Source of the DNA: a virus
Taxonomy: Duplodnaviria; Caudoviricetes
DNA: 60,400 nucleotides
IMG/VR virus record: IMGVR_UViG_3300022689_000334
Span: 1-60,400 of that record
Reading direction: 5' to 3' (one strand)
In this document: one piece after another, positions 17,651-46,742 of the stretch
Layout of the letters: every line of letters begins with the position of its first letter
Numbering within the stretch: the stretch's first letter is position 1
Notes under the pieces: generated by a model
The model's input: only the letters and a program-made list of their open reading frames with translations
What the model was told of the DNA's origin: nothing
The model's database searches: none
Program-made: the position numbers and the translations under genes

Positions 17651-18190
17651 CTACAGTTCCTCCATCGTGAACGTGATTAACTTCAGGTCTGTCCCGTCTG
17701 CTGTGGTGCCCTCTTGTTTTCGGTGTTCCTTTGGCAACAGCAACAAGACGCTGAACTGTGCAAACCCGTAGACGTAACTTGAGTTCCATTCCTCGCTATG
17801 GCTTTCTAAGAGAGTGCGACTGTGGGGCGTTGGTTCGCTATCAACCATCTCTATCCAGTCTTCAAGGATGAGTCGGCCATCTCCCCTGGCCTTGGGAGTG
17901 CCGTCATTGTTCAGACCCTTATAGGTTCGGTCTTGCCATTTAGCCATTGCACCCAGACGCCTGGCATCTGAGATGGGCAGGTGACAGGCAATAGCCCAGT
18001 CATGTTTTTCCAGGGTGGCTGGCCCTGAAACCTGAGGGGTGCCCCAGTCGCTGCGACCCTCCAGCTCCACATATCCCCCTTCAGAACGGATATATCCCCC
18101 GCCCTGGGGCCAGTCCGTGATGATGACTGGAGGGATGTTCGGTCCCCCAGCAGGAACCTTGATGATCAGGGTGTCCCCTAGTTGACTCAT
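17651..18190 (-). CDS. Putative distal tail protein
   Basis: Directly follows the tape measure gene with ATGA overlap. Confidence 0.5.
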   Translation of the reverse strand: MSQLGDTLIIKVPAGGPNIPPVIITDWPQGGGYIRSEGGYVELEGRSDWGTPQVSGPATLEKHDWAIACHLPISDARRLGAMAKWQDRTYKGLNNDGTPKARGDGRLILEDWIEMVDSEPTPHSRTLLESHSEEWNSSYVYGFAQFSVLLLLPKEHRKQEGTTADGTDLKLITFTMEEL

Positions 18191-21100
18191 AGCCTTGCCC
18201 CCTTAACCATCTGCCTCAGGGTGGCCATATTGGCTTGAGCTGCTGTGCCCAAGGCATCGCCCCCCTGTCCATAAAAGTGATACTGCGGTGTTATCCGGGG
18301 GGCTGGTCTGGTGTTAACTGCTTTGGTTAAAGTGTCCAGCCTGGCCAAGATGTCTGCATTTCCATCACCCCCAGCAGATAACCTGGCCCCTCCGGTCAGA
18401 CTGGCCGGGGCCTGCCGCGCCTGGATGAGTTGAGCTGTCTGACCAGCGGTATAGACCACCCCTGTTGTCATCGGTTGCACCAGCTGGGGTCCCCCTACCC
18501 CGACCAGGGCAGACCCGCCACCTGAGAACTTGACCATCTCTGGACCACCCTCACCCATGCGGTACACCTGCCCCGCTTCTACGGCCCCTCCATGCCGCCG
18601 TTCCGGGATGGTGACGGTATCACCCCCGTCAGCCAGATTCACGTCATCTATGGACACCTCCGGGGCCGGTATCTGGGTAGACTCCAGGACGTTCTTCATC
18701 ATTTCAGCCGTTTCCAGGTCAAAGTCACGCATGGCCTGTTTGTGAGTTTTTTCCCGTTCAATCTTTGCGTCTTCAGCATCCCGGTCCTTCTGTCGCTCTG
18801 ACTCGTTAAACTCTTCCTCAATGCGCTGGGCTTCTTCCTCATAGCCCTTCTTCACCTCGGCAATCTCACCTTCCTTTTGCTCTTTGAAAAGAGCTAGTTC
18901 CTCTTCCTGCTGTCTGCGGAAGGGTGCAATCACGTTTTGCTCAATCTCCTTGCGATACTCAGCCAGGGCAGCTTCCTGTTCCTCGCGCAGAGGCTTGATC
19001 ACGGTCTCTTCCAGTTCAGCCCGTTTCTGGTAGAGGATTTCTTCCTGTTCCTCACGCAGAGGTTGCATAACCTCTTCTTCAAACAGCTTGGCTTCCTCTT
19101 GCTGGGCTTTCTGGAATTCCTCAGCTGCAACCTGTTGACCCTCCTGGAATGCCTTTTCCTCCTGTTGCAGTTGAGCCTCAAAGTCAGCTCTGGCCTGCTC
19201 CAACGGACTGAGCTCTAATCGCCCTTCCCGATCTGCCTCACTCAGGATGCCGCCCCGTTGCCGTAGCACCTGCTGTTCAATCTTCAGGCGTTCCTTAAAG
19301 GCCTCATCTTCCTCAGCAAACTGCCTTTCCAGGTTGGCTCGTTCCTCAGCCGTTTCAGCCTGAGCAATCTGTAACCGTCGTTCCACCTCAAGCTGTAGGG
19401 CATCAAACTCACGGTTGGCCTGGTCCCGTTTCTGTTGCATCCGGTCCTGGTGGGCCTCAGCTGCCTGTTGCTGCGCCTGCTGGAATGCCTTTGCATCAGA
19501 CTGTTGCTGTTCCTGAAAATCTTCCTCTAGGGACTGAAGTTCTCTCTGCTGGGATTTCTCAAAACTGGCAATCTCTTTGGCCGTTTGCCTCTCCACTTCG
19601 GCCAAAGTCTTAGCTTGTTCCTCCTGTCGTTGCTCAATCAGGTCTCCCTGTTCTTCTTTTAGTTCGCCCAGTTCTTCTTCATGGGCAAGTGATCTGGCCT
19701 CCAGTTCAGTAGCCAGATCCTTTTGCATTTGAGCAACTTTGACTTCCCCCTGTTCCTTCAGGGCGTTGATTTCCCTCTGGTTTTGTTTTTCACGCTTCAG
19801 ACGAGCATCTTCCTCATCCCTAGACCGACTCCGTTCATCAGCCTCAAATCCAGACTGCAAGTCTTCTTTCAGGGCATCACGAGTGTTCTGGATTGCTGCA
19901 CTGGCATCCTCAAAACTATCAGTCACATTAGCCGCATCATTGGCCAGTTGGTTCCAGTCCGTTCCTGACTCAGCCGGGTCCTCAATTGCTTCCTTGAACC
20001 CCTCAGCTGAAGTGGCCAGAGCATCCACGGCCCCGCCCGTTGCCGTTGCCATGTCGTTTAGGTTTTCAATCCCCTGGTAGTCGTTCGGGTCCCCATTCCT
20101 CAACTGAGCCAACTTGTTAAGCACCCGTTCCACCTGAGCAATCAGGGGCTTGAGGATAGGGAACATACGTTCAGCATTGGTCACCACCTGCCGGATCACC
20201 TCGTCCGTGTTGATGCCTATTTCCGTCAGGGTCTCATCTACCTTTTTCACCAATGCCCCGAGCACTTCAAATAACCCTCGGATGGCCTCAATCGTGAAGT
20301 TGATAGGGGTAGGAAAGTCAAAGAACCGGTCAAAGTTATCGCCGATGATCGGGATACCCTCTGCGGCTGACTGAAGTTGGGCAATACCATCAGCCAGGGC
20401 AATCACAAACCGAACTACTTGCCCGACCGTCCGCACTGCCCCGGCCAGGTTTTCAAAGTTGTCAGCTAGTTGTTCAACGTTTTCTTGCTCACTGAAGAAT
20501 GCGGTCAGAGCATCCAGGATTTGAGCTATCTGACTGACTACTTCATCACCAATGACCGCAAAGGCCTCTCCCAGTCGCTTAGCAACCTCCGGGTTCTCTG
20601 TGAGCGTTACCCTTAACCGTTCCCCGGCCTCGCTCATCTCGTCCAGGCCATCTGAGGCTCTGGCTGTCTCAGACAGAACATCCTTGGCCAGTTGGATCAC
20701 GGTCAGTCGGACTGGGGCCAAGGACTGACCGAGGTCTGCCAGGGCCGAAGAGAATAAACCAGACAGCAACAGAGCTTGTCTCTCAATACTCTGGTTCATC
20801 ACCTCCAGGGTTTTATCTACCTGACCCGCAGAGTTTTCCAGGTTCCCCATCGTGGTCTGGAATTTGCCATCCAACTGCTGAAGTAGAGCAAAGACAGCCG
20901 GTGCCCCCTGTCGGCCAAAGATTTTAACCGCCAGGTTGATTTGTTCTTCTTTTCCTAAGTTCTGGATGGAGTCCCGGAACTGAGTCAGAGCAGCTTCCAT
21001 CCCGACAAAGTTGCCCTCAGTATCAAACACCTGCATTCCCAGTCCCTCCATCAGGGCTTGGGCTTCTCCGGTCGGGGCCGCAAAACCGGCAATTACATTT

Positions 21101-22047
21101 CGCAGAGCTGTAGAAGCAACCCGAGCACTTACCCCGAAATCTCGCAAGGTGGCAAAACTGCCAGCCAGTTCATCAAAACTAATTGCTGATGCTGCTGCAA
21201 TAGATCCGGCCTGTTGGTAGAGCCTGAAGAACTCAGCTACCCCGCCAGTGGACCCCGCTGCCGTGGTGTTGATTAAGGTCGTGATCTTATCGCCCAGGGT
21301 TCCTGCAGTCTCCCCCATCTCGCCGAAAATGTTGACCCCGGTTTGGATAACCTTACCGGTCAATACCGGATCTTCCTGGATAGTGTCACTGAGCTTGGTA
21401 ATGTCTCCCAGGTTTTCTTCTACCTGTTGAGCACTAGCACCCAGGGTCAGCAGGGCCGTTCCCAGTTCAGCCACAGTCCCCGGAGTCTGACTGGTGACAG
21501 CGGCATACTCTTTACTGGCATCAGCTAACCATTCCAGTTCCTGTCTGCCAATATTGCTCTTTGCTGAGAACTCCGTGATTGCAGCATCCATCTGACCAAA
21601 CTCTTCATTGGCCCGAGCTACCAACGCGCCCAGGGCATCACCTGTAGCCCTGAATAGACCGAGCAGAGATTGCAGGGTTGCCATAGCTGCACCCCCTGAC
21701 ATCCCGGCTAGAACGGAATTGAAACTTTTGGTGCTGGTTGCCGTTTTCTTGGCTTCCCGGCCTACCCTCTTGAGTCCCTTTTCCACCTGGCCCACGGTGG
21801 TCTTGGTCGGTCGGGCCTTACGGTTAAGAGCCGTTACCTCAGCTACCGTTGCCTTCAGGCCCTTGCTGGCCCCCCTGGACGTAGATTCAATGTCACTGAG
21901 GGCCTGGGTGAAGTTGCGAAGGTTCTCTTGCTTAGGGAGAGCCTTGTTCAGTTTCTCCAGGTCCCTACGAATAGCCCGAATGTTCTTCAGGGTCTCAGGC
22001 GGGGTCTGGTCAATGATCCTAAAAACTAAGCGCCTGGTCTCAGCCAT
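18187..22047 (-). CDS. Tail tape measure protein (TP901 family)
   Basis: About 1290 aa, Ala/Glu/Gln-rich helical; core ASTALRNVIAGFAAPTGEAQALMEGLGMQVFDTEGNF...KIFGRQG; C-terminal RHGGAVEAGQVYRMGEGGPE. Confidence 0.92.
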   Translation of the reverse strand: MAETRRLVFRIIDQTPPETLKNIRAIRRDLEKLNKALPKQENLRNFTQALSDIESTSRGASKGLKATVAEVTALNRKARPTKTTVGQVEKGLKRVGREAKKTATSTKSFNSVLAGMSGGAAMATLQSLLGLFRATGDALGALVARANEEFGQMDAAITEFSAKSNIGRQELEWLADASKEYAAVTSQTPGTVAELGTALLTLGASAQQVEENLGDITKLSDTIQEDPVLTGKVIQTGVNIFGEMGETAGTLGDKITTLINTTAAGSTGGVAEFFRLYQQAGSIAAASAISFDELAGSFATLRDFGVSARVASTALRNVIAGFAAPTGEAQALMEGLGMQVFDTEGNFVGMEAALTQFRDSIQNLGKEEQINLAVKIFGRQGAPAVFALLQQLDGKFQTTMGNLENSAGQVDKTLEVMNQSIERQALLLSGLFSSALADLGQSLAPVRLTVIQLAKDVLSETARASDGLDEMSEAGERLRVTLTENPEVAKRLGEAFAVIGDEVVSQIAQILDALTAFFSEQENVEQLADNFENLAGAVRTVGQVVRFVIALADGIAQLQSAAEGIPIIGDNFDRFFDFPTPINFTIEAIRGLFEVLGALVKKVDETLTEIGINTDEVIRQVVTNAERMFPILKPLIAQVERVLNKLAQLRNGDPNDYQGIENLNDMATATGGAVDALATSAEGFKEAIEDPAESGTDWNQLANDAANVTDSFEDASAAIQNTRDALKEDLQSGFEADERSRSRDEEDARLKREKQNQREINALKEQGEVKVAQMQKDLATELEARSLAHEEELGELKEEQGDLIEQRQEEQAKTLAEVERQTAKEIASFEKSQQRELQSLEEDFQEQQQSDAKAFQQAQQQAAEAHQDRMQQKRDQANREFDALQLEVERRLQIAQAETAEERANLERQFAEEDEAFKERLKIEQQVLRQRGGILSEADREGRLELSPLEQARADFEAQLQQEEKAFQEGQQVAAEEFQKAQQEEAKLFEEEVMQPLREEQEEILYQKRAELEETVIKPLREEQEAALAEYRKEIEQNVIAPFRRQQEEELALFKEQKEGEIAEVKKGYEEEAQRIEEEFNESERQKDRDAEDAKIEREKTHKQAMRDFDLETAEMMKNVLESTQIPAPEVSIDDVNLADGGDTVTIPERRHGGAVEAGQVYRMGEGGPEMVKFSGGGSALVGVGGPQLVQPMTTGVVYTAGQTAQLIQARQAPASLTGGARLSAGGDGNADILARLDTLTKAVNTRPAPRITPQYHFYGQGGDALGTAAQANMATLRQMVKGARL

Positions 22048-22972
22048 CGGCCTCCCCTCCCTGAACAAGACTCTCAGGCAGAGGTGCTGAGAGATTAGGG
22101 TTATCTACCGACTGGGTTTCATGCTGGTTCTCATCCTGGGTTTTATCCTCAGGGGAAACCGTATCTACTTCGGCCAAAGTCTCTTCCTCAGCCTGGGGCT
22201 GGGGTTCTGGCTGGGGAGTCTGGGAAATAGCCCTGACCCGAGGCTTAGGGATACTGGATACCGGCGTACTCTGCGCTTCCTCAGCAGGTGTCCCGACATG
22301 GGCTGTGCGACGACCCTTTTCTCGTTCTTCCCTGGCCCAACGTTCCACATTTCGCTGGTGCCTTGCCTTAGCATCCAGCGAGAAGTATCCCAGGGCATCC
22401 AGTTCTGCCATCAGGTCTCTGGCCCCCACGGCCCGAGCCAACTGGTGCCCCTTAGATAGATCGCCCTGACAGTAGGTTGCAATCATGGCCATCCAGTCAG
22501 CCTTGTCTTGCAACTGGATACCGCCCCCGGCTCCATAGCGACCAGCGCCAATGTGATTGAGTACCCGCAGTGCAGCTCTGACCTGAAACCTTTTCTCTAT
22601 GCGGTCAAAGAGCATCCAGCCAATCATCCTGGGGCTGAACCATCTGAGCTTAATCTGGTTCATCTGGATGCACTCATTAACCAAATACCTGAACCGTTCA
22701 TTGGTTAGGTACAGCTGCTCCAGCGTGACATCTCCGGTCATGGCCTCTGACATGAGACTGACCAGATGATCTAGCTCATTCAGGTTTTCCTCAAACTCAT
22801 GAACGCCATTCTCCGGGTCCCCAGAACATCCCCTGACCCGTCGCCAGCGCCCTGTGACATCTACAAACTCCAGATCGCCACCACCCCTGAACTGATACTC
22901 AAATACCGTGTCAGGGTGATAGTCAATCACCTGAAGCTCTTGCAGTTCTTGTTCAGATGCAGGGATAGGCAT
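22040..22972 (-). CDS. Putative tail assembly chaperone
   Basis: Position between tail tube and tape measure genes. Confidence 0.5.
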   Translation of the reverse strand: MPIPASEQELQELQVIDYHPDTVFEYQFRGGGDLEFVDVTGRWRRVRGCSGDPENGVHEFEENLNELDHLVSLMSEAMTGDVTLEQLYLTNERFRYLVNECIQMNQIKLRWFSPRMIGWMLFDRIEKRFQVRAALRVLNHIGAGRYGAGGGIQLQDKADWMAMIATYCQGDLSKGHQLARAVGARDLMAELDALGYFSLDAKARHQRNVERWAREEREKGRRTAHVGTPAEEAQSTPVSSIPKPRVRAISQTPQPEPQPQAEEETLAEVDTVSPEDKTQDENQHETQSVDNPNLSAPLPESLVQGGEADG

Positions 22973-24660: not shown

Positions 24661-25155
24661 TTAAAAAAGCGGGTTGTTATCCCAGGCTTGATCAAGCTGG
24701 GATAGGTAAATTGCTAGATACTGGTCCTCCTTCTGCGGGGTAATGTCCAGGAACGGACGCGCCGGGATGTAGACCATCGTTCCGTTGCCAAAGGCTTCCC
24801 GGTAGTCGCCAAAGTGCTGAGTCGCGGCATAGTCCAGGTCGCTCAGGGCCTCAATCATCCCCTGATCCCCTCCGTCATTGGCAGAGACCTGAATGGTCTC
24901 TCGCAACGTCAGGGTCTTATGCAAAATGCGCGTGTCAAAACCCCTGGCCCGTTTCCAGGCCACATACTTAGGATTCAACGGTTCCCACCGACCATAAGGG
25001 CCAGTCTGTTGTTCAAAGTATTGGTCAATCGTCTCGGCCAGATCCGCCTTGATTCGGTTCCTGGCCGGACTCCGGTCCTCCAAGAACTCTTCCAGGCCCC
25101 AGAGACTCAGTTCCAGGGGTCTGGAGTCAAAGTAGACACGGAGGGCAACGGTCAT
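24661..25155 (-). CDS. Phage virion morphogenesis protein (Mu gpG / P2 S family)
   Basis: FEQQTGPYGRWEPL...ILHKTLTLR...YAATQHFG...IPARPFL. Confidence 0.88.
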   Translation of the reverse strand: MTVALRVYFDSRPLELSLWGLEEFLEDRSPARNRIKADLAETIDQYFEQQTGPYGRWEPLNPKYVAWKRARGFDTRILHKTLTLRETIQVSANDGGDQGMIEALSDLDYAATQHFGDYREAFGNGTMVYIPARPFLDITPQKEDQYLAIYLSQLDQAWDNNPLF

Positions 25156-25259
25156 TATGCACAAGTTATCAACGTCCCCAGTGTGGCTTAAGCCACCTCA
25201 TAAAAAAAGGCTAGCCCAAAGGCTAGCCCAGTTCCTGTCCCCGGCTAGGGGTTACCCCC

Positions 25260-25568
25260 CTAGAACACTTCAATTCCGTACTTTCCAGCCACCGGCTTGC
25301 AGTCATCAATAGCCGGGATGTAGTAAAACAGGTTCTCACTGCCGCGCCGCGCTGCAATGCCCATGCAGTAACCCATAGCTTGGGATTCAGGGTCTACCAG
25401 GTTAATGCGTCCCTCTACCTGGCCCATGTTCAAGGTGGAGTCGCAGGCATCCAGGGTGTAACCCTGCTCTTTCATACCCAGAACCCAGTTAATCAGGGCA
25501 TCCTGAACGGCCTCAACAGTCTTGCAATCAGAAAACTTGCGGGTCAGGTCAGCAGCTTCAATTGACAT
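25260..25568 (-). CDS. Hypothetical protein (self-promoted cassette)
   Basis: AGGAG RBS, leader motif and palindrome-containing promoter upstream. Confidence 0.75.
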   Translation of the reverse strand: MSIEAADLTRKFSDCKTVEAVQDALINWVLGMKEQGYTLDACDSTLNMGQVEGRINLVDPESQAMGYCMGIAARRGSENLFYYIPAIDDCKPVAGKYGIEVF

Positions 25569-25683
25569 GGCGGTTTCTCCTGTGGTGCGGTGGTGGTGTG
25601 TTTGTCTTTACTTCTTTATATTAATCCACTTCGGCCAAAGTTGCAAGGGGTTGGCCAGAAAAAACTTTGCCAACCCCTTGCCA

Positions 25684-25836
25684 TTACTCAAGCTCAGGGT
25701 TTTCAGGGCTGGAGATTTTAATTTCAACTTGAACGGTGCCCCGGCTTTCAACGTAGTTGGCCATAGCGTTGACCCCGGCTTGAACAAGCTGACTACCAAC
25801 GACAACGACTCCAGCAAGGGTAAGGATAATTTTCAT
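25684..25836 (-). CDS. 50-aa protein with signal/membrane N-terminus (not in ORF track)
   Basis: MKIILTLAGVVVVGSQLVQAGVNAMANYVESRGTVQVEIKISSPENPELE; leader motif directly upstream. Confidence 0.6.
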   Translation of the reverse strand: MKIILTLAGVVVVGSQLVQAGVNAMANYVESRGTVQVEIKISSPENPELE

Positions 25837-26022
25837 GGCGGTCTCTGTGGTGTTTGGTGTTTTGTCTTTACCCTTTTATATTAACACCATGCAGAGGCCC
25901 TGAACCCGTATAACTACGGGGTTTCGGGGCAATACGCCAAATTGCGTACTCTTAAAACTGCACACGAAAAAGCCCCGCATAGAGTCGGGGCTTTGCTGAA
26001 CCAGTATTAGTCTACCGGACCC

Positions 26023-26448
26023 TTAAGCCAGGTCTGAGCTGACCAGAGCAAAGGCAATGGTGCCGTCAGGGTTGAGGGTAGGAACCAGGCGAGAGATACG
26101 GCCTGATCCACGGTATGTCCTCTGCCCATTGCCGTCCTGTTGAGTATCCTGAGCAACTGCACCTGGAATAGGAAGGGGTCTGGTGGTGTCTGGCAGTTCA
26201 GGCCCCCCCTGGTCTACTGGAGTGAGGGCCAAGGGGTTTCTGTTGATAGGCACAGGGATGGGAAACCGTCGCCGTTTGGCCAGTAGCTCAGCCGGAGCTT
26301 GCGTGGAGTGGATGATGCAGCCGTCTGAAGCTGCGCCCTCAGGGGCAATGCTCGGGGCACCTGAGGGCAGGGCCGCAACAGCTGCTCCAGCAGCAACGGA
26401 ACCCAGGGCAGTAAGAGTAGTGAAGGTGATTGCAAGTGGCTTGTTCAT
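26023..26448 (-). CDS. Secreted PatX/PatS-like RGSGR-motif protein
   Basis: Signal-peptide-like N-terminus, Pro-rich body, RGSGR at residues 113-117 (nt 26098-26112); own leader motif. Confidence 0.6.
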   Translation of the reverse strand: MNKPLAITFTTLTALGSVAAGAAVAALPSGAPSIAPEGAASDGCIIHSTQAPAELLAKRRRFPIPVPINRNPLALTPVDQGGPELPDTTRPLPIPGAVAQDTQQDGNGQRTYRGSGRISRLVPTLNPDGTIAFALVSSDLA

Positions 26449-26541
26449 AGGGCGAAACTTGGTGGTGTTTTGTCTTTACCCCTTTATAATTGCTTAATCC
26501 GGGTTATTTATCCCCGGTGAGATTACCTAACTTTGCCGGGT

Positions 26542-26991
26542 CTAGGAGTGAGGGCTGATGGCGTGTTCCAGATCCAGCATGAGATCTTCTGCCCAGTTTC
26601 TGGCTTTGGCCAAAGCTTCTTCAGGGGTTAAGCCTAATGTCCCGTCTGTGTGAAACAGGAATACTCCCTGAGGGCCTGTGGTGCGTATGGCGGCGCTGGC
26701 CCCAAAGGATGTCACCCAAAGCTCTATCTTGAGCTGCAAGCTGAGGCTGGAGACTGCATAAAACTCATCCGGTCGGGATGTCTGGTCAAAGCGAATACCG
26801 GGGAAGGCAAGGGCAATAGCCCCACGGATATGGTCATCTGCAGGGCGGTTGAGTTGAGGTTGCACGTTGAATAGTTCCGGTTGAATGTGCATGTCCTGAA
26901 GGGGAGAACTCCCCTCCAGCTTAAGGGTGTACTGGGAATTTCTCTCCCCTGGCTCCATCCTGGAATACGGCAGGGACAGAGGGATGTTCAA
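26542..26991 (-). CDS. Hypothetical protein
   Basis: 149-aa ORF continuing the minus-strand accessory operon. Confidence 0.55.
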   Translation of the reverse strand: MNIPLSLPYSRMEPGERNSQYTLKLEGSSPLQDMHIQPELFNVQPQLNRPADDHIRGAIALAFPGIRFDQTSRPDEFYAVSSLSLQLKIELWVTSFGASAAIRTTGPQGVFLFHTDGTLGLTPEEALAKARNWAEDLMLDLEHAISPHS

Positions 26992-27904
26992 TCCACTTCA
27001 GGGGGGCCTTCCCCTGGATAGACCGTTCCCTGACCCAGGCGGGTCGGTCTCCCCAGGCCCAGACTGTATTGCCCCTGCCCTCTGCCCAGGCCTTAAAGTC
27101 AGCCAGCTGGGGGTCATCGCTGGCATCTCCGTACCCTGGCCAGATATCCAGGATGAAGCTATCGTAAGGGGTTTCAATGCCTGCAGCACAACTCTCCTGA
27201 TGACACCGTAGGGTTTCCCACAGGTCTCCCCTGAATGTGCCTACCAATTTGTCAGCATGGGGACTGCTTTCTGGAATGCAGTTAAAGACATCAACTACGG
27301 CAGGGTCAATCTCAATTATGGTCACGGTCTCAACTTCTGGCTTGGCCAGAATCTCAGAGGCCATCCAGCCCAGGCCCAATCCCCCGATCAACACATGACC
27401 ATGGGCAGCTTCTATCCCTGGTTTGCAGGTGATGATTTCCATCGGAGTCAGGCTCATCCAGGTGTCTTCGTTGTCCCATAGGATGGGAACGGGTATGTCC
27501 CCCGTAAAAAACGCCCAGGCATGATTGCCCTGGTCATCCCAGACTCGCATGGAATGAAACCCTGTCTTTTCCATGCCTGCTATGCCATCCCCACCGGCCA
27601 TGACCAGGCGAGTCTTTGCGTGATGCACTCTCCAGGCAAAAGCCCGGCCAGTGTCCATATCCAGGATGGCAGCAGAGATGTCAATCTGTCGTTCAAGCCA
27701 GTCAATGTAGGCATCTGCATCAAATAGCAACACCTCCCCGTTGCGCTGAATTTCCCAGTCCAAAGGGTCCGTTATGAGTCGGGCATGGTTCAGGGTGTGG
27801 GGACTTGAATCATTAAGCCCCTTCATCATGTTCACAATCTGATCCAGGTGTGCTGTCGTGATGCCGGTCAGGCCGTTGCTCAGAATTACGTCGTCATCAA
27901 GCAT
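26921..27904 (-). CDS. Spermidine-synthase-like SAM-dependent transferase
   Basis: WMSLTPME...VLIGGLGLGW...VTIIEIDPAVV...YDSFILDIW. Confidence 0.7.
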   Translation of the reverse strand: MLDDDVILSNGLTGITTAHLDQIVNMMKGLNDSSPHTLNHARLITDPLDWEIQRNGEVLLFDADAYIDWLERQIDISAAILDMDTGRAFAWRVHHAKTRLVMAGGDGIAGMEKTGFHSMRVWDDQGNHAWAFFTGDIPVPILWDNEDTWMSLTPMEIITCKPGIEAAHGHVLIGGLGLGWMASEILAKPEVETVTIIEIDPAVVDVFNCIPESSPHADKLVGTFRGDLWETLRCHQESCAAGIETPYDSFILDIWPGYGDASDDPQLADFKAWAEGRGNTVWAWGDRPAWVRERSIQGKAPLKWIEHPSVPAVFQDGARGEKFPVHP

Positions 27905-28610
27905 TAGCCAAGGTCTCCTGTGGTGTTTGTGTTTTGCAAGATGTTAGGCACCCATCAACGCATCGTTGCAGGATGTCTTCATGTAACCTTTGGCCGAAGT
28001 CATCAGCGTAGAGGCCGGACTGTTGCGCAATTTCTCGCCAGAGAGGAATCAACGCCCTGATACTGCTTACGTTCGGCGGGATGATTTGCTGGGTCAAGCC
28101 CGGTTCTGGGATGTACGCCAGGTCTTTCACCACGGCCAGAGCATTCGGGTGGCCGCAGACGACGGCAGGAAGATCAACCCGGTTGCAGGGAACACCCATT
28201 TCCTTGCAAGAGCTGGGCCACCAGATGGCGGCAAAGTCCACGACGATGATCTCATGGTCGTTGCTTTCGTCAATGACCGTCCCCGGCTCAACATCTCCCA
28301 CCAAAATATTCCAGGCATGAAACTCGTCTATGCGCCCCTCTGCCTGAGCTGCTTTGTTCTCGGCGCTGTTAAAGTCCATCTCCAGTCTCCACGGCGGGAA
28401 ACCCGAGTTATCCGGCTCGGCTACCCTGACACTGATGGAGCCAGCGCCAATATCCCAGGATTCATGGGTCAGGTCTCTCAGGGCAAAGGCCCCGATTGCG
28501 GCTGTCAAATGACAGAGCTGGTGACAATATTTAGGGGATGCCGCCATCATGGTGCGCGTGATGGAGTCCTGAAGCTGCCCCAGGGGGGCTGTGTCCTGTC
28601 CTATCAACAT
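27897..28610 (-). CDS. Hypothetical protein, possible transglutaminase/papain-like Cys-His-Asp
   Basis: LCHLTAAIG...FHAWN...VVDF. Confidence 0.5.
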   Translation of the reverse strand: MLIGQDTAPLGQLQDSITRTMMAASPKYCHQLCHLTAAIGAFALRDLTHESWDIGAGSISVRVAEPDNSGFPPWRLEMDFNSAENKAAQAEGRIDEFHAWNILVGDVEPGTVIDESNDHEIIVVDFAAIWWPSSCKEMGVPCNRVDLPAVVCGHPNALAVVKDLAYIPEPGLTQQIIPPNVSSIRALIPLWREIAQQSGLYADDFGQRLHEDILQRCVDGCLTSCKTQTPQETLANA

Positions 28611-28906
28611 GGCTGTGTCCCCGCAGGTAGCCAGAGGGAAGACCGTCTGGTAGGGGTAGTGAGGTTCTGTAAGACGCGGCGGTAGATTGCCTGATTGCCC
28701 CGGTCTATCCAACGACCCTCGCAATAGGACCATTCCCTAAAACCAGCGTGATCCGGGGTGTCTTCCGTAACGACGAGAGCCCCGTCTATCTGGGTGACCA
28801 GACCTGTCTCTGCACTGGGCAGGCCATCGGCAATGGAGACTCCTGAAACGTTCGTTTCTTCCTCAGGGGGAAGACTATACAGGTCAAGGGTGCATTGGGC
28901 TGTCAT
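28604..28906 (-). CDS. Hypothetical protein
   Basis: First gene after the leader motif at about 28920-28935. Confidence 0.65.
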   Translation of the reverse strand: MTAQCTLDLYSLPPEEETNVSGVSIADGLPSAETGLVTQIDGALVVTEDTPDHAGFREWSYCEGRWIDRGNQAIYRRVLQNLTTPTRRSSLWLPAGTQPC

Positions 28907-29043: not shown

Positions 29044-29874
29044 TTAATAACCCATTAAGCCACTTAAACCCTTTCTCGTAAAGACTCTGGTTCCACGGCC
29101 AACGCTACCGCCCACCCTGAGGGTTTCTGGGTCTCCAGGGGTGATGGGCACCCCTCCCTCATCCAGCAATATCTCTTCCCCTTTGGCTATGCGCTTAAGC
29201 CTTGCCAGGGTGTCGTCATAGCGTTTTCGGACATCCTCTCTGGCTCCATAGCGCAAATCCAGGAAGTAACGGGCTAACTGGATATTGATGTGTGCTAAAG
29301 CCCTGGGAACAGGCTTAATGGCCCTGAGTTCCGGGATTGAGTATCGGGCTGCCAAGATTGGTTCCATCTCTGACACCCCTTGCACCAGAGCATCCCAGAT
29401 TTGCACTAGATTGATCTGTCCATTATTCAGATTATCCAGATCGCTCAGGTCCAGAGCATCCAGGCCCCCTGACTCCCCTGCGGTGCGATAGTCAACGGTC
29501 GTTGCATAGGCAAAGGGTTCATAACCAGGAATGATAACGGGGTCACCGCCCGAGTCACCGCCCGAGTCACCGCCTGGAACAGGTTGGCCGACGACGCCCA
29601 GGGAGACATATTGCTGAAACTCGTTTCCGCCCAGAGCATAGTTAAACGTCAGGGAAACGGTATCTCCGTCATCCCAAGTTTCCGGGGCCGGGAAGCTGTA
29701 TCCGTAGACCCCCTTAACAATCGACCCGTTCACCGTCACCGACACTTCTTCAACACTGATCAGCTGGGTGTTGTGAATTAGCGAGACTACGGGCAGTTCA
29801 TCAGAGTTTATAAGTCGTCCATCTGCTTCAATGGCAAAGGTATTTTCAAATAACCTGCCGGGAGTGATTTGCAT
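29044..29874 (-). CDS. Head-tail adaptor (Mu gp36 / DUF1320) with N-terminal extension
   Basis: C-terminal YAT..D...LAARYSIP...LARYFL...VRKRYDDTLARLKRIAKGE...VFTR; GGDS-repeat linker. Confidence 0.8.
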   Translation of the reverse strand: MQITPGRLFENTFAIEADGRLINSDELPVVSLIHNTQLISVEEVSVTVNGSIVKGVYGYSFPAPETWDDGDTVSLTFNYALGGNEFQQYVSLGVVGQPVPGGDSGGDSGGDPVIIPGYEPFAYATTVDYRTAGESGGLDALDLSDLDNLNNGQINLVQIWDALVQGVSEMEPILAARYSIPELRAIKPVPRALAHINIQLARYFLDLRYGAREDVRKRYDDTLARLKRIAKGEEILLDEGGVPITPGDPETLRVGGSVGRGTRVFTRKGLSGLMGY

Positions 29875-30352: not shown

Positions 30353-31303
30353 TCAGGGGTGAACGTCTTTGATGAGAAATCCGAACATGGGAGCAGTGAC
30401 AATCTCTTGCAGGTGCTCCCCTACGCGCACGTAGCGACCTCCATCTAAGCCGATGTCCTGGTCAAACCAGTTATAGGTTCTACGGGCACCCCATTGAGCC
30501 GTCAGGCCCCAGGTCATCCCGGATTGCACCGTAGCTGTCGGGTCAATCCGCAGAAGGGCAATGTCGTGGTCCCACAGACGAGACAGGTTTGCAGGCATAC
30601 CAGGACGGTTCGTATCCAGCCACGCGCTGCCTACGACCAACTGCATGTTGAACATTTCTTCAAAGAACGCCCTGGGCACCAGACCGTTGCGACCATCGTT
30701 ACCGTGATAGGCCGAGATCATCTTGGGATGCCGACGAATCCAGCCCCAGGTATTTTCCCCCATGATGGCCATGTTGGGCTTGGCAATCATGACGGACTTG
30801 GCTTCCTCAAGCACCCCGATGGGGTCGCTCTCAGTGGCCGGGGTCGTTGGGTCAATCGTGTAGTTGCTGAACTGGTCTGCCCCCGCCAGGGTCATCAGGT
30901 TTCCAGCAGGGTAGTTGTTGGTATTGAAAACCGTGTTAACTACTCGCAACTCGCGGTCAAGCAACATCCAGTTCGTGATGTGCTCAGTATTCTCATCCAG
31001 CGGGTCATAGCCGGGGCCTGAGTTGTCAATGTCCTTTTGCGGAACGGGATTCTGCAGACCGTAATCTTTGGTGCGGCCTTCCCGCATGTCAAAACCAAAC
31101 TCAACGTTCTGCACCTGACCTGTGCGGCCTACGAGCGTGTCAACCCGCTTAAAGGCTTCATCCAGTCGGTATTGCTTCCAGTCAAACCGTTCACCGCCAA
31201 CGGGCTTACGGGGAAGAACGATGTCTGAAATCAGTTCCTCATTTGTGTACTGGATGGCTATGGCCGTTCTGCGACGGTCTACGGGAAATTGTGCTAGTGG
31301 CAT
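30353..31303 (-). CDS. Major capsid protein
   Basis: 316 aa after protease and decoration genes; TAIAIQYTN...LLDRELRV...PN...W..IRRHPK pattern. Confidence 0.85.
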   Translation of the reverse strand: MPLAQFPVDRRRTAIAIQYTNEELISDIVLPRKPVGGERFDWKQYRLDEAFKRVDTLVGRTGQVQNVEFGFDMREGRTKDYGLQNPVPQKDIDNSGPGYDPLDENTEHITNWMLLDRELRVVNTVFNTNNYPAGNLMTLAGADQFSNYTIDPTTPATESDPIGVLEEAKSVMIAKPNMAIMGENTWGWIRRHPKMISAYHGNDGRNGLVPRAFFEEMFNMQLVVGSAWLDTNRPGMPANLSRLWDHDIALLRIDPTATVQSGMTWGLTAQWGARRTYNWFDQDIGLDGGRYVRVGEHLQEIVTAPMFGFLIKDVHP

Positions 31304-31841: not shown

Positions 31842-33518
31842 TTAAACCTGGAGATTGTTTTCAGCAATCACATGGTCAAGAGCGGCTTTGAAGTCTACTT
31901 CTTTGCCAGCTTGCTTTTGTTGATGTCGGTAGGTTTCAGCCAGTTGAACCAGATCTTCAGGGGTTACAGCTTCCACACTTTCGCCGCCATCATCCGGGGT
32001 CAGTTCCTCGTGCAAGGTTGCAAACACAGCAGCAACCGACTCCAGGTGAGACCTGAACCAGGCCCCCTGCTCTTTACCCAGGGATGCGCCAAATTCGGCC
32101 AAAGTGTATGGCTCTCCCTCAGAGTGATTCATCACCCCAGGCAGGCGCGTTGCCGTGTGGCCATTCAGGATTGAGGCTGGCAGTTTCATCTGATTGACTG
32201 CGGCCTTCCAGTCTGACTGTCTGGCTATGGCTTGTTGCTCGGCCAGAGCTGTGGTTAGGGAGTTGCGATCTGATTCCAGTTGACTGATTCGGCCCAGGGC
32301 TTGTTGGAGTTGACGTTGTAGAGCGTCCATAGATGATGCAGAAGTTTGATCAGGGGAGGGGTGAGGGATTGGAGCTGGATCTGTGTTCGGGGCCGGGGCC
32401 GGGGATGGAGCCGAAGGAGTCTCAGGCGGGGTTTCCTCTCCAGGTGGAACCGGAGAAGGAGGCCCTGACTCCTGACCCTGATTGCCGTCCCCTTGATTGC
32501 CCTCATCAGGAACGGTCGGGGTCGGGGTTGCATCCTGCTCTGGGGTTGCTGGATCAGAGTGAGTGCCTTTGGGCTTTGCACTGGATGGCATAGTGTCTTC
32601 CTCCTGGTAAACGGGTTGTCCAAGTCTTTCTTCAACCAGTGCATAGATGTCGTTGAACATCCGATACATCCGGTCTTCTAGGTCTTCTAGGTCCCTTATG
32701 TCAGCAACCAATCCTTCCCCCTGCTCCGGGGAACTGACCAGGGCTGTCATTTGGTCAAGGGTTTCTTTGGGTAGAACGGCCTCAGCTGCCTCTACCCCTT
32801 GTTCAGCGATGATGCGATCACGCATCCGCCCGAGCATGTCAGCAGAGGCGCGAACTGCATTAGACAACGCCCAGAGGTAGTCACTGGATGCAGCCCAAAA
32901 TGCAAAATCGTGAACCCCTTCGCTTGCTGAACGACTGGGTTCTTCACTGAGCAAGACGGTGTGTTCCGGGATGTTGTCCTCGGATAGGTCAAGAGACATC
33001 CCCTTCACTGCAGGCGGATCAACTCCCAACAAGGCAATGTGACGAAGCGCAAGTTTGCCGGGGCTGGGATTAGTCGGGGCATCTCCAAAGTAGATTGAAC
33101 TGGAAATGCCTGTAATCTGTCCGTTCTGAATCCACTCCCTTGCAATGGGAGCAATCTTTTCAAAGTAGGCAAACAGGCTGTCCCCGACTCTCTTAAGAAA
33201 CTTGGGAAAGCCAAATGCCAGGTTCCTGAGCAAGAGTTGTTGGTGCTTCTCTGCATCGTCCCCGGCACCATCAGGGTCCGCAAAGTGCCCGTCTACGTCA
33301 TGGCTCACGATCAACGGGGCGCGGAACACCTCAGGGTTGTAAGACTGAACCATCTCGTCCAGTTCTTCTAGGGTCCACTCCTTGCTGAACCCCATTGAGT
33401 CCGTATGCAGACCAGCCCTGAATATCTCCAGGCCAACTAGATTCTCATCCCCTTCAAACAGGACTATCCGAATTTTGTTTTTACCAGTTGGCTTTTCAGG
33501 GGCAATGGTCGTGGGCAT
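31842..33518 (-). CDS. Mu gpI-like prohead protease with scaffold domain
   Basis: EIFRAG.H, APLIVSH, SSSIY...LRHIALLGVDPPAVKGM; coiled-coil C-terminal part. Confidence 0.88.
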   Translation of the reverse strand: MPTTIAPEKPTGKNKIRIVLFEGDENLVGLEIFRAGLHTDSMGFSKEWTLEELDEMVQSYNPEVFRAPLIVSHDVDGHFADPDGAGDDAEKHQQLLLRNLAFGFPKFLKRVGDSLFAYFEKIAPIAREWIQNGQITGISSSIYFGDAPTNPSPGKLALRHIALLGVDPPAVKGMSLDLSEDNIPEHTVLLSEEPSRSASEGVHDFAFWAASSDYLWALSNAVRASADMLGRMRDRIIAEQGVEAAEAVLPKETLDQMTALVSSPEQGEGLVADIRDLEDLEDRMYRMFNDIYALVEERLGQPVYQEEDTMPSSAKPKGTHSDPATPEQDATPTPTVPDEGNQGDGNQGQESGPPSPVPPGEETPPETPSAPSPAPAPNTDPAPIPHPSPDQTSASSMDALQRQLQQALGRISQLESDRNSLTTALAEQQAIARQSDWKAAVNQMKLPASILNGHTATRLPGVMNHSEGEPYTLAEFGASLGKEQGAWFRSHLESVAAVFATLHEELTPDDGGESVEAVTPEDLVQLAETYRHQQKQAGKEVDFKAALDHVIAENNLQV

Positions 33519-33607
33519 GTCGGAACCTGTAAAAACTCCAAGATTGCTCTGACCCAAGGTATTCGCGCTTTGGCCAAAGTTTCAAGGCTAGCCTTATGAT
33601 TGTGTAA

Positions 33608-34311: not shown

Positions 34312-34590
34312 ATGACCGCTGCCTATCCTACTTTTGAGCAAGTTATTTGCCAGGTCGTTGCTAATCCCTGCAATAAACTGCAGGAAACCTTAGCCCTGTG
34401 TCTGGCCGGGGAGTGGCCCTATGACCCAACTGAGGAACAGGTTTACTACCTGCTCACCTCTGGTCGCACCCTGAAGGATATGGTTACCCCGGATGGTCGT
34501 GAAATTGTGACCTACGCTGATTTCTGCGGCCCCTGGGTGCTCAAGGTTGACATGGATGCTTTCAAGGTCAAGTTTCCTGAGTTTGCTTAA
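34312..34590 (+). CDS. Hypothetical protein (self-promoted cassette)
   Basis: AGGAG RBS and full cassette promoter at about 34225-34275. Confidence 0.75.
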   Translation: MTAAYPTFEQVICQVVANPCNKLQETLALCLAGEWPYDPTEEQVYYLLTSGRTLKDMVTPDGREIVTYADFCGPWVLKVDMDAFKVKFPEFA

Positions 34591-35333
34591 GCCCCTGGAT
34601 AGCTCCACCTGGCCCGATAACCCCGGCCATCAATGTGAGTAAAGCCTACCCCAGCAGCTAAGCCGCCCTGAATGTGCCACCAGCGATCCAGGGCGGCATA
34701 GACCTGTTTAGGAGTGCGACTTGGAACCCGGAAGTCTACGGCATCGCCACGCATATGCCGACTCTGGCTAGCGCCTCCGACTCGCCGATTTGTTGCCGGG
34801 TCCCTGTACCAAGATGTGATGGTCACCGGCTCACTGCCCAGGCGGATGCGAACGTTTTCCATCACGCCAGCAATGCGAATGATATTCCGCGTAACTTCCT
34901 CATCGTGGGGCCTACGAAAGTTCCCGTTCCGGTCAAAGTGCAGTGCCTCGCGCCATTTGAAATGATGCGTCCCTGGGATAGCCTCATTGCTCCACAGAGG
35001 CCCCGGCAAACCTGGTATATCAAACTTGAATCCCCTGTCCTCTGCAGGGGCCTTAGCTGGTTCATCGTGGGGGTCGTTGTCGGGGCTGAACCCTGCCGGG
35101 TCAATGATATGGCCCTTAAAGACCCACCATGTATTCTTTCCGCTGTGGTGCAGTTCAGCCAGGTCTTCTGATTCCGGGTCCAACGTCACCACAAGATGAC
35201 TGCCTTCTTCTCGATAAGCAAGGACATTGAACTCCGTCCCCTCTGCCACGCTGGCCAGGTCCTGGTCAGGTAGTTCAGAAGATTGGGCTGCTGAAGGCTT
35301 GAATACGGTGTCTTGAGACAGGATTAGTTTCAT
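34587..35333 (-). CDS. Endolysin, peptidase M15A family
   Basis: ITSWYRDPATNRRVGGASQSRHMRGDAVDF...FTHIDGRG; N-terminal domain typical of cyanobacterial cell-wall hydrolases. Confidence 0.88.
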   Translation of the reverse strand: MKLILSQDTVFKPSAAQSSELPDQDLASVAEGTEFNVLAYREEGSHLVVTLDPESEDLAELHHSGKNTWWVFKGHIIDPAGFSPDNDPHDEPAKAPAEDRGFKFDIPGLPGPLWSNEAIPGTHHFKWREALHFDRNGNFRRPHDEEVTRNIIRIAGVMENVRIRLGSEPVTITSWYRDPATNRRVGGASQSRHMRGDAVDFRVPSRTPKQVYAALDRWWHIQGGLAAGVGFTHIDGRGYRARWSYPGA

Positions 35334-35339
35334 GGGTTT

Positions 35340-37934
35340 TTAGATTAAAGTGCGTAACCAGCTCGGTAGTCGGTTCTCTACGGCATCCAGGGCCGCAGTG
35401 CGATTGCGATCAACAGTCGGTGACCCCAGCCAGCTCGGGTCATCCACCAGAGGCACCAGCGTCCCGTCAACGTACTCAGCCAGTACCGGGATGCCGTCAA
35501 TCGTGATGGTTGCTGCCGGGGAAACGTCCAGGGTTACTCCCTCAGGCAGAGACGCCAGATACTCCTTCAGGCACCGGCAACCGTAGCCGTTCGGGGGGGA
35601 GTATTGCGCCCAGAATGCGTCAGTGCTACTCAGGGTGAGCATGTCCAACTTGCGATGATGCTCCCTGGCATTGACATTGGTTCGGTGTCGCCATCGGGAG
35701 TAGGGGTAGAGTGCGATCACATCCCTGGCATTCATGACCTGCTCAAATCCGGCCATGTAGGCAGACCAGACCAGCGTCATCGAGGCAAACCGTCCCCGAC
35801 TAGCCTCGGCATGACTACTGGAACTGGAATTATCACTGGCCGTCACCAGCCAACCGGCCTGTTGAGCACGTTCTGTCACTCTGGCTCTCTGGTCTGCCTT
35901 TTTCTCGCCCTTAGCCTTGGCCAGTTCCCCCTTACTCTCCATGACCCAGGCCACCAGACCCAGCAGGCTGGCCCGAGCTAGTTCCTCGCCCCAGCTGTAG
36001 GCATCCTGAATCCGGCTTGTGTTCACCCCGGCCAGAGCTGCCACCTGACTGAGCTTTTCATCAGGGTTGAGACCGGTCAGAGCCTCAAGGGTAGGCTCTC
36101 CCTCCAGCCGATCTGGAAGGTACTCAACTGTTGCACTGAACCGGCCTACTGCATCTGCAGATGCCAGTCCCAGAGCAATCTGATCTCCTAGGGCCGCTGC
36201 TACCCCCCGGAACTCTCCCCCTTTAACCACTTCGGCCAAAGCAGATTGCCATTTCTTGCTTCTGCCGGTGACGACAGGTAGGACTAAATCCCAGGTTGCT
36301 TTTAGCCCCCTGGAGAATGCCCCTGAAACGGCCTGCTCCAGTTCAAGGTAGGGCTGGGGTAGTTCCCCCTCAGGCGCGGCGTACTCGCCCTGCCTGTGGT
36401 GAGATAGCCAATGTCCGTACCCCTTCCAGACATCCCCGTCGTTCAGGGTGATGCTGGTTTCATTGGTCTCTGTTTCACTGGTCTCTATGGTTACCGGGGT
36501 TCTCTGGCCTTCCCCCGGATCACCCCCGTCACCCTCAGGGGTAACCTTGCTGCGGGGCTGGCCCTCATCTGGGTCAGGCCTGGGGTCTGCTGTGGGCCCG
36601 ATATCTTCATAGTCATCGCCATAGATACGCACGACCGCAGAGGGCTTCAGGCGATACCCCTGCTTAAAGAGTTTGTCATCCCGATCTGATCGCTCGTTCA
36701 AGTCTTCCTGGTCGTCAAAGTCGCGCCAATACTGGGGCGGCTCTGCCGTGGGAATATTTAACACGGTTAACGGGATAAACAGATATTTCCGCATAGACGG
36801 GCAAATCAGGTCACTGTCTGCCTTGACCCATTCCTGTCTTATCTCTTCATCGTTCTTGGCCGGGGCACCGCTGAGGCCCTGGGTTGCTGCAACACCATAG
36901 GCCTGGCCGGTGATGAGTTCAGAGATCTGCCCATCAATCCAGTTCATGAAACTTTCGTAGGTATTGATGGACCCGGCGCGAGCTGCTTCTAGCAGGTGAA
37001 CCTTGTAACCCTCCGGTAGGCTGGCCCAGGAGTTGCGCCCGTAGGTGGTAAAGAATTCCTCCAGCAAGCTGCCGTCTTCACCATCAGGGTAAGTCCCGTA
37101 CTTCCCTGGCTCGGCGTACTTATCTGCGTAGATAGCCCAGAATGCAACGAATTCCCTCTTGAGGGTTACTGGCCAGAACAGATCGCCGCCCACCCCCTTG
37201 CCGTTGGGGTTGCTCGTTTCACTGCCAAAGCTGTGATGGATGAACTTGAAGATGGGGGCCGGTTCCCCCTTAATCGGCTCGTCCTTGGTCAGTATTCTCA
37301 ACTCCCAGCCCATGATCTGCTGGGGCGGTAGCTTGATTCGGGAGGGCTTATCAGGGTTAACCGGATTCAGGTCATTAACCTGACTCGGGTCTTTCACCTG
37401 CCTAACTTTTTTGCTGGGGGGCCGGAAGACAAATCGTTCCCGCTTCCTGTTCCGTATCTCCCTGGGAACCGTAATCCAGGGGTAAGGGTAGGGGGGCCGA
37501 ATCACCTTCACCGTTCCGGTGCGGTCATCTTGCTCAAACTCTCCTTCGACCAAACTCCGGGGAGTAGGCCGGGTTTCCCACAGCATTTCAGCATGCCCCC
37601 GCCCCCCGATGTAAGCCTGCTTCCAAAGTTTTCGCTCCACCTCATCCCAGGGCAGGTTATCAATCACCCACTGAGAGAGGGTTGCAATGGCCACATCTTC
37701 CGGGTTCTGACTGGCAGGGCGGATCTTCCTGTCCCTGGCAGAGATGGCCTGTCCCCGTCGCTCCAAACAGGACTTGACGTGCAAGTCTTTTTCTACGGAA
37801 CCAAGCCGGGTGTAGTCTCCCCCTAGCCTGTCTCGCAGGTACGGGTCTTCAATTTCTGGTTCATCCAGGAACCGCTCAAACGGTGCATTTGAAACCCTGA
37901 CCAGCTCATCGTGGAGCAGTTTAGAAATTGCCAT
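35340..37934 (-). CDS. Portal (Mu gp29/DUF935) fused to head morphogenesis domain (Mu gpF)
   Basis: D.HVKSCLERR, NPNGKG..LFWPV..KR...W..YADKYAEP, ISELITGQ; C-terminal REHH..LD...FW...PPNGYGCRC. Confidence 0.9.
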   Translation of the reverse strand: MAISKLLHDELVRVSNAPFERFLDEPEIEDPYLRDRLGGDYTRLGSVEKDLHVKSCLERRGQAISARDRKIRPASQNPEDVAIATLSQWVIDNLPWDEVERKLWKQAYIGGRGHAEMLWETRPTPRSLVEGEFEQDDRTGTVKVIRPPYPYPWITVPREIRNRKRERFVFRPPSKKVRQVKDPSQVNDLNPVNPDKPSRIKLPPQQIMGWELRILTKDEPIKGEPAPIFKFIHHSFGSETSNPNGKGVGGDLFWPVTLKREFVAFWAIYADKYAEPGKYGTYPDGEDGSLLEEFFTTYGRNSWASLPEGYKVHLLEAARAGSINTYESFMNWIDGQISELITGQAYGVAATQGLSGAPAKNDEEIRQEWVKADSDLICPSMRKYLFIPLTVLNIPTAEPPQYWRDFDDQEDLNERSDRDDKLFKQGYRLKPSAVVRIYGDDYEDIGPTADPRPDPDEGQPRSKVTPEGDGGDPGEGQRTPVTIETSETETNETSITLNDGDVWKGYGHWLSHHRQGEYAAPEGELPQPYLELEQAVSGAFSRGLKATWDLVLPVVTGRSKKWQSALAEVVKGGEFRGVAAALGDQIALGLASADAVGRFSATVEYLPDRLEGEPTLEALTGLNPDEKLSQVAALAGVNTSRIQDAYSWGEELARASLLGLVAWVMESKGELAKAKGEKKADQRARVTERAQQAGWLVTASDNSSSSSHAEASRGRFASMTLVWSAYMAGFEQVMNARDVIALYPYSRWRHRTNVNAREHHRKLDMLTLSSTDAFWAQYSPPNGYGCRCLKEYLASLPEGVTLDVSPAATITIDGIPVLAEYVDGTLVPLVDDPSWLGSPTVDRNRTAALDAVENRLPSWLRTLI

Positions 37935-46646: not shown

Positions 46647-46742
46647 GGTGGTGCGCCTCCTTTAGGCGGTGTTTGTCTTTACCCCTTTATATTAAGCTAC
46701 TTTGGCCAAAGTTGCAATAGGGGACAAGAACTTTTTTTGGGT

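Follow-up and report, generated by a model that had tools for sequence, protein, structure and literature searches.

An open reading frame with a single RGSGR motif in an uncultured tailed phage may encode a mimic of the cyanobacterial inhibitor PatX

The question raised by this locus is whether a phage can carry its own version of PatX, the RGSGR-bearing protein of filamentous cyanobacteria that was reportedly described by Elhai and Khudyakov in 2018. The window analysed here is an entire IMG/VR virus record (IMGVR_UViG_3300022689_000334; 60,400 bases, linear class, estimated completeness of 61%, G+C content of approximately 53%), which on its gene content clearly belongs to a tailed phage. 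It contains an orphan open reading frame (ORF) of 141 residues on the minus strand (26023..26448), with an ATG start, a signal-peptide-like N-terminus, a Pro-rich middle and one RGSGR motif followed by a tail of 24 residues. From the comparisons described below, we consider this ORF to encode a PatX-type mimic with a probability of roughly 0.55. HetR and PatX are reported from almost all filamentous cyanobacteria, and what they do in those that form no heterocysts has been called a mystery (PMC11298460).

The N-terminus of the ORF begins with MNK and continues with approximately 24 mostly hydrophobic or small residues that include AxA-type sites; the approximate signal peptide, delimited by sequence reading and a hydrophobicity heuristic, covers residues 1-28 (26365..26448, minus strand). 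By this heuristic, the region resembles a Sec signal peptide, with a maximum 15-residue Kyte-Doolittle mean of 1.75, which is inside the range of 0.50-2.29 found for 30 PatX ORFs of the likely host order, 26 of which reached at least 1.45. Pro accounts for 12% of the protein. The motif lies within YRGSGRIS (residues 112-119; 26092..26115, minus strand), with the RGSGR core at residues 113-117 (26098-26112) in the wider context RTYRGSGRISRL, and it was the sole RG[ST]GR string in the six frames of the window. The initial annotation had described a hydrophobic signal-like N-terminus, a Pro-rich body and RGSGR at 26098-26112, and our readings agreed with it on each of these, the first by the heuristic. 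Composition predicted 0.029 RGSGR motifs in a crude proteome of 18,670 residues (mean of 2000 shuffles, 0.0285), and the expectation was 0.00027 when [YW] precedes and [ILV] follows the motif; by these composition figures, flanks of this kind accompany approximately 1 in 100 chance motifs. The ESM Atlas model of the 141-residue protein had a predicted local distance difference test score of 0.49 and a predicted template modelling score of 0.18, and its fold was not confident.

We found that the host of this phage is likely, but not proven, to be a thin filamentous cyanobacterium of the Nodosilinea/Leptolyngbya group, because the DnaB and the endolysin of the phage are closest to that order. 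Among the best 80 of 527 DnaB relatives in genome_contigs, all carried cyanobacterial or "uncultured bacterium" titles except one locus (L076, Candidatus Sericytochromatia), and the leading matches came from Nodosilinea, Leptolyngbya/Leptolyngbyaceae and Phormidesmis with identities of 52-58%, or 67% on one partial locus. The best DnaB identity among 1142 phage records was only 41%. The endolysin DNA matched 36 of the 173 genomes of the order that holds those Nodosilinea and Leptolyngbya genomes, nearly all of the matches falling in 34588-34955, with identities of 66-74% where the match was longer and as high as 89% in short stretches, and the endolysin protein was at most 37.5% identical to proteins of cultured phages. 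This pattern suggests that the segment was recently exchanged with host or prophage genes. The shared segment (34588-34955) encodes the M15 peptidase portion at the C-terminus of the endolysin. Two other proteins did not discriminate between hosts: the AAA ATPase matched FtsH-like genes in all 173 genomes at 34-41% identity, and the portal protein matched 6 of 151 genomes of the order at 30-38%. The portal reached 37% identity in the cyanobacterial order versus 30% to Pseudomonas B3-like phages, and no relative of it was found in viral_contigs.

The likely host order carries the expected target. HetR_C was present in all five genomes reached from the DnaB loci and then in 60 of the 61 genomes sampled from the order, so that the host hetR, which the initial annotation had named as a point to check, was borne out at the level of the order. 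In Leptolyngbya BL0902, patX is located immediately upstream of hetR (PMC11298460); therefore, the DNA beside hetR was read in 34 loci. A protein with a hydrophobic N-terminus and two to nine RG[ST]GR motifs was encoded next to hetR in 33 of these loci, and the 34th was cut by the end of its contig. Across the 118 motifs of these host PatX proteins, the preceding residue was Y (40), D (29), H (27), F (11) or W (4) in most cases, and the following residue was most often I (43), L (29) or V (25). Thirty of the 33 proteins were aligned, three being dropped for having no start or fewer than 70 residues; the consensus around the last motif was vAYRGSGRIs, and the tail after the last motif was 0-13 residues long. 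A TCCTGA box was found 58-65 nucleotides before the start in all 27 host patX loci with enough upstream DNA, and this fixed distance supports the start codons that we assigned; the canonical TCCGGA was found in none of the 27 within 120 nucleotides upstream. In the host patX promoters (loci L082-L127), a conserved GTAACA-like box follows TCCTGA, and the PatX of one genome in this set has nine near-identical DRGSGRIT repeats. For two host PatX proteins (L083 and L101), no viral relatives were found.

Upon comparison with these host proteins, the phage motif, TYRGSGRIS, was found to have the commonest flanks of PatX in the host order, with Y before and I after the pentapeptide. Alignment with hhalign placed the phage motif on the last-motif consensus of the 30 host PatX proteins over 12 columns, with an E-value of 4.7e-5 and a probability of 68%. 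The likeness extends to the general layout: the phage protein is small (141 residues; host examples 77-139 residues, n=30), it has a hydrophobic Sec-type N-terminus, and its RGSGR is in the C-terminal part (residues 113-117 of 141) with Y-RGSGR-I-S, the modal flanks of the likely host order. In contrast to the host pair, which adjoined in 33 of 34 loci, the phage gene is located between head and tail genes and not beside hetR, and a HetR_C match is absent from the 60.4-kb record. TCCGGA was not found in the 200 nucleotides upstream of the phage ATG. A CCCGGA approximately 55 nucleotides upstream of this ATG was considered as a DIF1-like site and rejected, since the hosts have TCCTGA instead, its spacing is constant and the box downstream of it differs. 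On these comparisons, we regard the ORF as a phage-borne variant that probably works like PatX rather than a member of the family by descent.

The ORF appears to form a stand-alone accessory cassette with its own promoter/leader copy and terminator hairpin. The promoter/leader unit (26463..26488, minus strand) contains TATAAA (26483-26488) and the conserved element GGGTAAAGACAAAACACCA (26463-26481), which ends 14 nucleotides before the ATG; an exact 17-mer match confirmed this leader copy. The 19-nucleotide element was found at 12 sites in the window versus 0.03 expected, namely 8499, 10630, 10986, 25873(-), 26481(-), 28933(-), 42703, 46444(-), 50689, 50927, 52377 and 56859, with a further site at 46675-46691(-). 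The full conserved unit, TA(A/T)TATAAA(A/G)GGGTAAAGACAAAACACCA, spans approximately 30 nucleotides; it is present at 12-13 sites, distributed over both genome arms, and each copy points towards a start codon downstream. When the copies were aligned, a TATAAA/TATTAA-like box preceded each of them, TTGACA was present approximately 17 nucleotides further upstream in some, and a start codon followed approximately 8 to 42 nucleotides downstream in most. We read the repeat as a probable phage promoter followed by a conserved leader rich in A and C. On the other side of the gene, 30 nucleotides past the stop codon, lies a terminator-like hairpin (25967..25993, minus strand) composed of AAGCCCCG, a loop of 8 nucleotides, CGGGGCTT and a T-run. 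This GC-rich hairpin with its U-run had a minimum free energy of -17.3 kcal/mol and a z-score of -2.67; it was absent from the list of a consensus terminator scanner. The self-promoted cassette of the initial annotation was recovered in these features. The next cassette (25684..25873, minus strand) is built from a promoter/leader copy (25855-25873) and an ORF of 50 residues (25684-25836) with a hydrophobic N-terminus; this ORF had no match in Pfam, PHROG or NCBIfam, and its product is possibly another small protein that is exported.

To identify similar proteins in other phages, 2.9 million IMG/VR contigs were scanned with some of the codon patterns for YRGSGR[IM] and AYRGSGRI, the record of the window itself being excluded. 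YRGSGR[IM] was matched 96 times, with 13 matches in ORFs of at least 60 residues with a start codon and 83 outside such ORFs. Only one of the 13 was clearly signal-peptide-like. This ORF of approximately 70 residues (L172:7557-7769, plus strand) belongs to IMG/VR record G152 (23 kb, 19% complete, 44% G+C). Its signal peptide is strongly basic, with MKKMKRMK ahead of a hydrophobic stretch, and a single AYRGSGRIS and a tail of 21 residues follow. The tail genes on either side of this ORF run on the other strand, and a hairpin lies after it. A tail protein of 843 residues from the same record matched only 5 of 50,697 phage records, every one from a phage with a filamentous cyanobacterial host: Planktothrix PaV-LD (two records), Aphanizomenon CL131, and Pseudanabaena PA-SR01 and Pam2. 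The G152 phage is unrelated to the window phage and has the same layout of signal peptide and single motif. One more of the 13 ORFs, at locus L224, shows a hydrophobic stretch, but this follows an internal start, and the frame is rich in Arg.

Five complete cultured phage records were also scanned for RGxGR codons, and the frames were checked. No RG[ST]GR string was found in PaV-LD, PA-SR01 or Pam2, and the G+C-rich Leptolyngbya phage Lsp-JY19 had several RG[ST]GR strings, mostly in Arg-rich frames, as read from frames and not from annotation. The Aphanizomenon phage CL131, whose host is a heterocyst former, had two annotated coding sequences with RGSGR versus 0.0216 expected (Poisson 2.3e-4, before allowing for five records). 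Both encode hypothetical proteins without a signal peptide: gp091 (MG209611.1 81116-81514) has HRGSGR at residues 6-11, and gp103 (MG209611.1 87056-87493) has ERGSGR at residues 131-136 of 145. The gp103 motif was considered as a conserved family feature and rejected, as it was kept in two close homologues and was RGSER in a 44%-identical one. An RGTGR string in CL131 was set aside as antisense to gp132. PatS, RGSGR, HetR and heterocysts are unmentioned in the main text of the CL131 genome paper. With the second phage included, the interpretation of the initial annotation is supported in part. Its central idea, a PatX-like RGSGR pre-peptide encoded by a phage, withstood the tests that were applied, as a likely host clade with hetR and patX, the modal flanks and the G152 ORF agree with it; the host-type promoter and the linkage to hetR are missing.

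In Nostoc, PatX is reported to require Sec export and to be matured by PatP, after which a hexapeptide binds HetR and blocks its DNA binding (PMC12756182). PatP is described there as a widely conserved peptidase (PMC12756182). By analogy, the phage ORF would be transcribed as a stand-alone cassette from the repeated promoter/leader unit of the phage, and the Sec pathway would carry its product into the periplasm. A PatP-type peptidase of the host could then trim the product to a short peptide containing (Y)RGSGR, and this peptide may act on the PatX/HetR pathway of the host, in the simplest case by occupying the HetR hood domain and blocking DNA binding. Its site of action would be the infected cell and possibly also adjacent cells along the filament. 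Expression, export, processing, HetR binding and any benefit to the phage are inferred. In a complex prediction with the HetR hood domain (G002 genome, two copies) and phage residues 100-141, the score was 0.00, which speaks neither for nor against binding.

The initial annotation proposed that the phage may manipulate HetR-dependent differentiation or signalling along the filament, with neighbouring cells being kept vegetative as an example; the heterocyst part of this proposal is not supported. We take the genera of the likely host (Nodosilinea, Leptolyngbya and Phormidesmis) to form no heterocysts; therefore, "keeping neighbouring cells vegetative" does not apply as it was written. For non-heterocystous clades, control of filament growth by PatP-PatX, perhaps through necridia, has been proposed (PMC12756182), and it is speculation on our part that the phage damps such a filament-growth or necridia response.

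Several observations weigh against a PatX-type mimic. The phage protein has one motif, whereas all 33 host PatX proteins have two to nine, and its tail of 24 residues is longer than the 0-13 residues of the hosts. TCCTGA is absent from the 80 nucleotides upstream of the phage gene, where the phage promoter repeat stands in place of the DIF1-type promoter. The hhalign match covers only the 12 columns around the motif and nothing outside them. The ORF has no homologue, so that the conservation of its motif has nothing to be compared against: a word-index search of 5.8 billion clusters returned only the ORF protein itself; phmmer against 1.84 billion representatives returned the protein itself and P0002, a repeat protein of 1905 residues matched at query residues 7-88 that was judged to be a low-complexity artefact; tblastn against cultured phages gave no match; none of 440 pattern matches in 185,579 species genomes (genome_contigs) was confirmed as a homologue; and the best feature score in the ESM Atlas was 0.78, which is below the useful range. 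No Pfam, PHROG or NCBIfam model matched the ORF, even at an E-value of 10 in Pfam and NCBIfam, the presence of a PatX model in those libraries being unconfirmed. The host assignment is indirect: the head genes are as similar to those of Pseudomonas B3-like phages as to those of the few cyanobacterial prophages; the major head protein, which matched 3 of the 173 genomes of the cyanobacterial order, was 45% identical to that of Pseudomonas phage B3 versus 41% and 35% in two of these genomes (the third was below 30%), and a search of one third of the window gave no match resembling a spacer of clustered regularly interspaced short palindromic repeats or a prophage identity. As for the second phage, approximately 107 nucleotides of the L172 ORF are shared with the 3' end of a 221-residue ORF that is phosphatase-like, and a search of the word-index protein database with the L172 protein gave no candidate, the protein itself included, so that the L172 ORF was apparently not annotated as a gene. 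Both the flank test and the second phage came after the hypothesis, and the window ORF was picked from a very large scan. Finally, transcriptomes of BL0902 suggested that the effects of PatX are largely independent of HetR (PMC11298460), which speaks against the HetR-centred form of the proposal.

The main rival to a PatX-type mimic is a chance motif, namely that the ORF encodes an ordinary orphan secreted or membrane accessory protein, for example one for superinfection exclusion or envelope modification, in which RGSGR and its flanks are coincidental. An orphan without a family, with a single motif that is not C-terminal and without a host-type promoter, is what such a coincidence would look like; a very large scan is expected to return some chance RGSGR, and YRGSGRI strings do occur out of frame in IMG/VR, as seen from the 83 of 96 matches outside ORFs of at least 60 residues. 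The expectations of 0.029 per proteome and 0.00027 with flanks speak against it, and it needs independent coincidences in the signal-peptide context, in a host clade with hetR and patX, and in a second phage with the same layout. We consider it unlikely. It is extremely improbable, in our estimate, that the ORF is not a gene at all and that the frame just happens to stay open within intergenic or regulatory DNA. It has no homologue, ORFs of 104 and 73 residues overlap it in other frames, and its codon score of 0.073 is weak, being at the low end relative to the long genes of the phage (0.074-0.298); this score was, however, the best of the six frames (-0.073 or lower in the others) and was above zero in each 35-codon slice along the length, the promoter/leader repeat is at the same distance from the ATG as in other genes, and the terminator follows directly.

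Two further explanations accept a relationship to PatX. The product could be a PatX-type signal that does not work via HetR and has another receptor or effect in non-heterocystous filaments, such as filament growth or fragmentation. In BL0902, the patX hetR double mutant is reported to resemble the patX mutant and not the hetR mutant, and the authors consider the effect basically HetR-independent (PMC11298460); the proposed control of filament growth or necridia by PatP-PatX (PMC12756182) fits as well. On the other hand, patX stands beside hetR in 33 of 34 loci, and RG(S/T)GR peptides are reported to bind HetR directly in Nostoc (PMC7476756; PMC12756182), and we regard an action without HetR as quite unlikely. 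The ORF could also be a drifted remnant of a captured host patX that has one motif left and a replaced promoter and is carried without function. Its one motif versus two to nine, its longer tail, a similarity confined to the motif and a codon score at the low end of the phage genes would suit decay, but the frame is intact, the gene has its own promoter/leader copy and a terminator, the surviving motif keeps the modal flanks, and the second phage also has a single motif. We consider a remnant very unlikely.

If the ORF is a PatX-type mimic, several consequences follow. That a phage copies PatX would imply a role for the pathway in infection, and with the phage gene a natural single-motif probe of it would be available. 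A wider proposal, which we consider less likely than not, is that RGSGR peptides were gained more than once by the phages of filamentous cyanobacteria as a means of usurping the developmental HetR/PatX signalling of their multicellular hosts, with secreted single-motif PatX-type versions in two unrelated uncultured phages (the window phage and G152) and cytoplasmic HRGSGR and ERGSGR proteins in CL131; as a viral imitation of a bacterial morphogen, the exported form would reach past the infected cell through the periplasm that the filament shares. If its ORF is a PatX mimic, the window phage would be, so far as our search showed, the first virus to encode a mimic of a bacterial developmental inhibitor able to act on neighbouring cells of a multicellular host. 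In a literature search whose coverage left out many subscription journals, no phage-encoded PatX, PatS or HetR inhibitor was reported in the portions of the literature retrieved. The claim can be tested by published assays, including heterocyst suppression in Nostoc, electrophoretic mobility shift assays or isothermal titration calorimetry with HetR, and the BL0902 mutants.

The remaining features of the window place the cassette in its genomic setting. The large terminase is encoded at 46743-48458, and the Mu-type portal is fused with a Mu F-like domain in one ORF of 864 residues (35340-37934, minus strand; Portal_Mu at residues 47-439 and the Mu F-like domain at residues 715-788). These are accompanied by the M15 peptidase/endolysin (34587-35333), the head protease (31842-33557), the major head protein (30353-31303), a Mu gp36-like head protein (29044-29874), a tail-completion protein (24661-25164) and the tape measure protein (18187-22068). 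A gene similar to replication protein O is found together with DnaB on the other arm of the genome. The RGSGR ORF is held in an accessory island (approximately 25260-28733) between the head and tail genes, and the neighbours of its cassette are the Mu gp36-like head gene and the tail-completion gene. Additionally, a radical SAM/SPASM protein (13098-14678, minus strand) adjoins the tail genes, and accessory enzymes were observed at 43591-44652 and 53978-55063 (both plus strand), comprising a sulfotransferase-family protein and a DUF5131 protein. No transfer RNA genes were found in the 60.4-kb window.

To place the phage protein among known systems, we compared it with the other RGSGR proteins of cyanobacteria and with the peptide systems of other phages. 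PatS and HetN contain the same RGSGR pentapeptide as the phage protein. HetN is a reductase-like protein with an internal ERGSGR, whereas the residue before the phage motif is Y and the phage protein has no Pfam domain. PatS is very short and ends in the motif, in contrast to the phage protein of 141 residues, in which the motif lies 24 residues from the end. The signal-peptide-like N-terminus of the phage protein distinguishes it from both. The processing of PatS and HetN is thought to be cytoplasmic (PMC12756182), and an internal RGSGR motif can be active, as reported for HetN (PMC7761841; PMC7476756). RGSGR and ERGSGR, the latter being the PatS-6 hexapeptide, bind HetR and inhibit it (PMC7476756).

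In its gene organisation, the cassette resembles the "moron" cassettes found in the late operons of phages, with which it shares its own promoter and terminator and a position between head and tail genes; this likeness concerns organisation and not function. The Rap-Phr cassettes and the arbitrium peptide AimP of Bacillus phages offer a parallel to the proposed function, as a phage pre-peptide is exported, cut to 5-6 residues and re-imported, and then binds a cytoplasmic regulator, and some cassettes of this type alter developmental decisions of the host. These systems bring their own receptor (Rap or AimR), whereas no receptor gene was recognised in the phage window. In the system proposed here, the target would instead be a regulator of the host, and the filamentous form of that host could let the exported peptide reach neighbouring cells.

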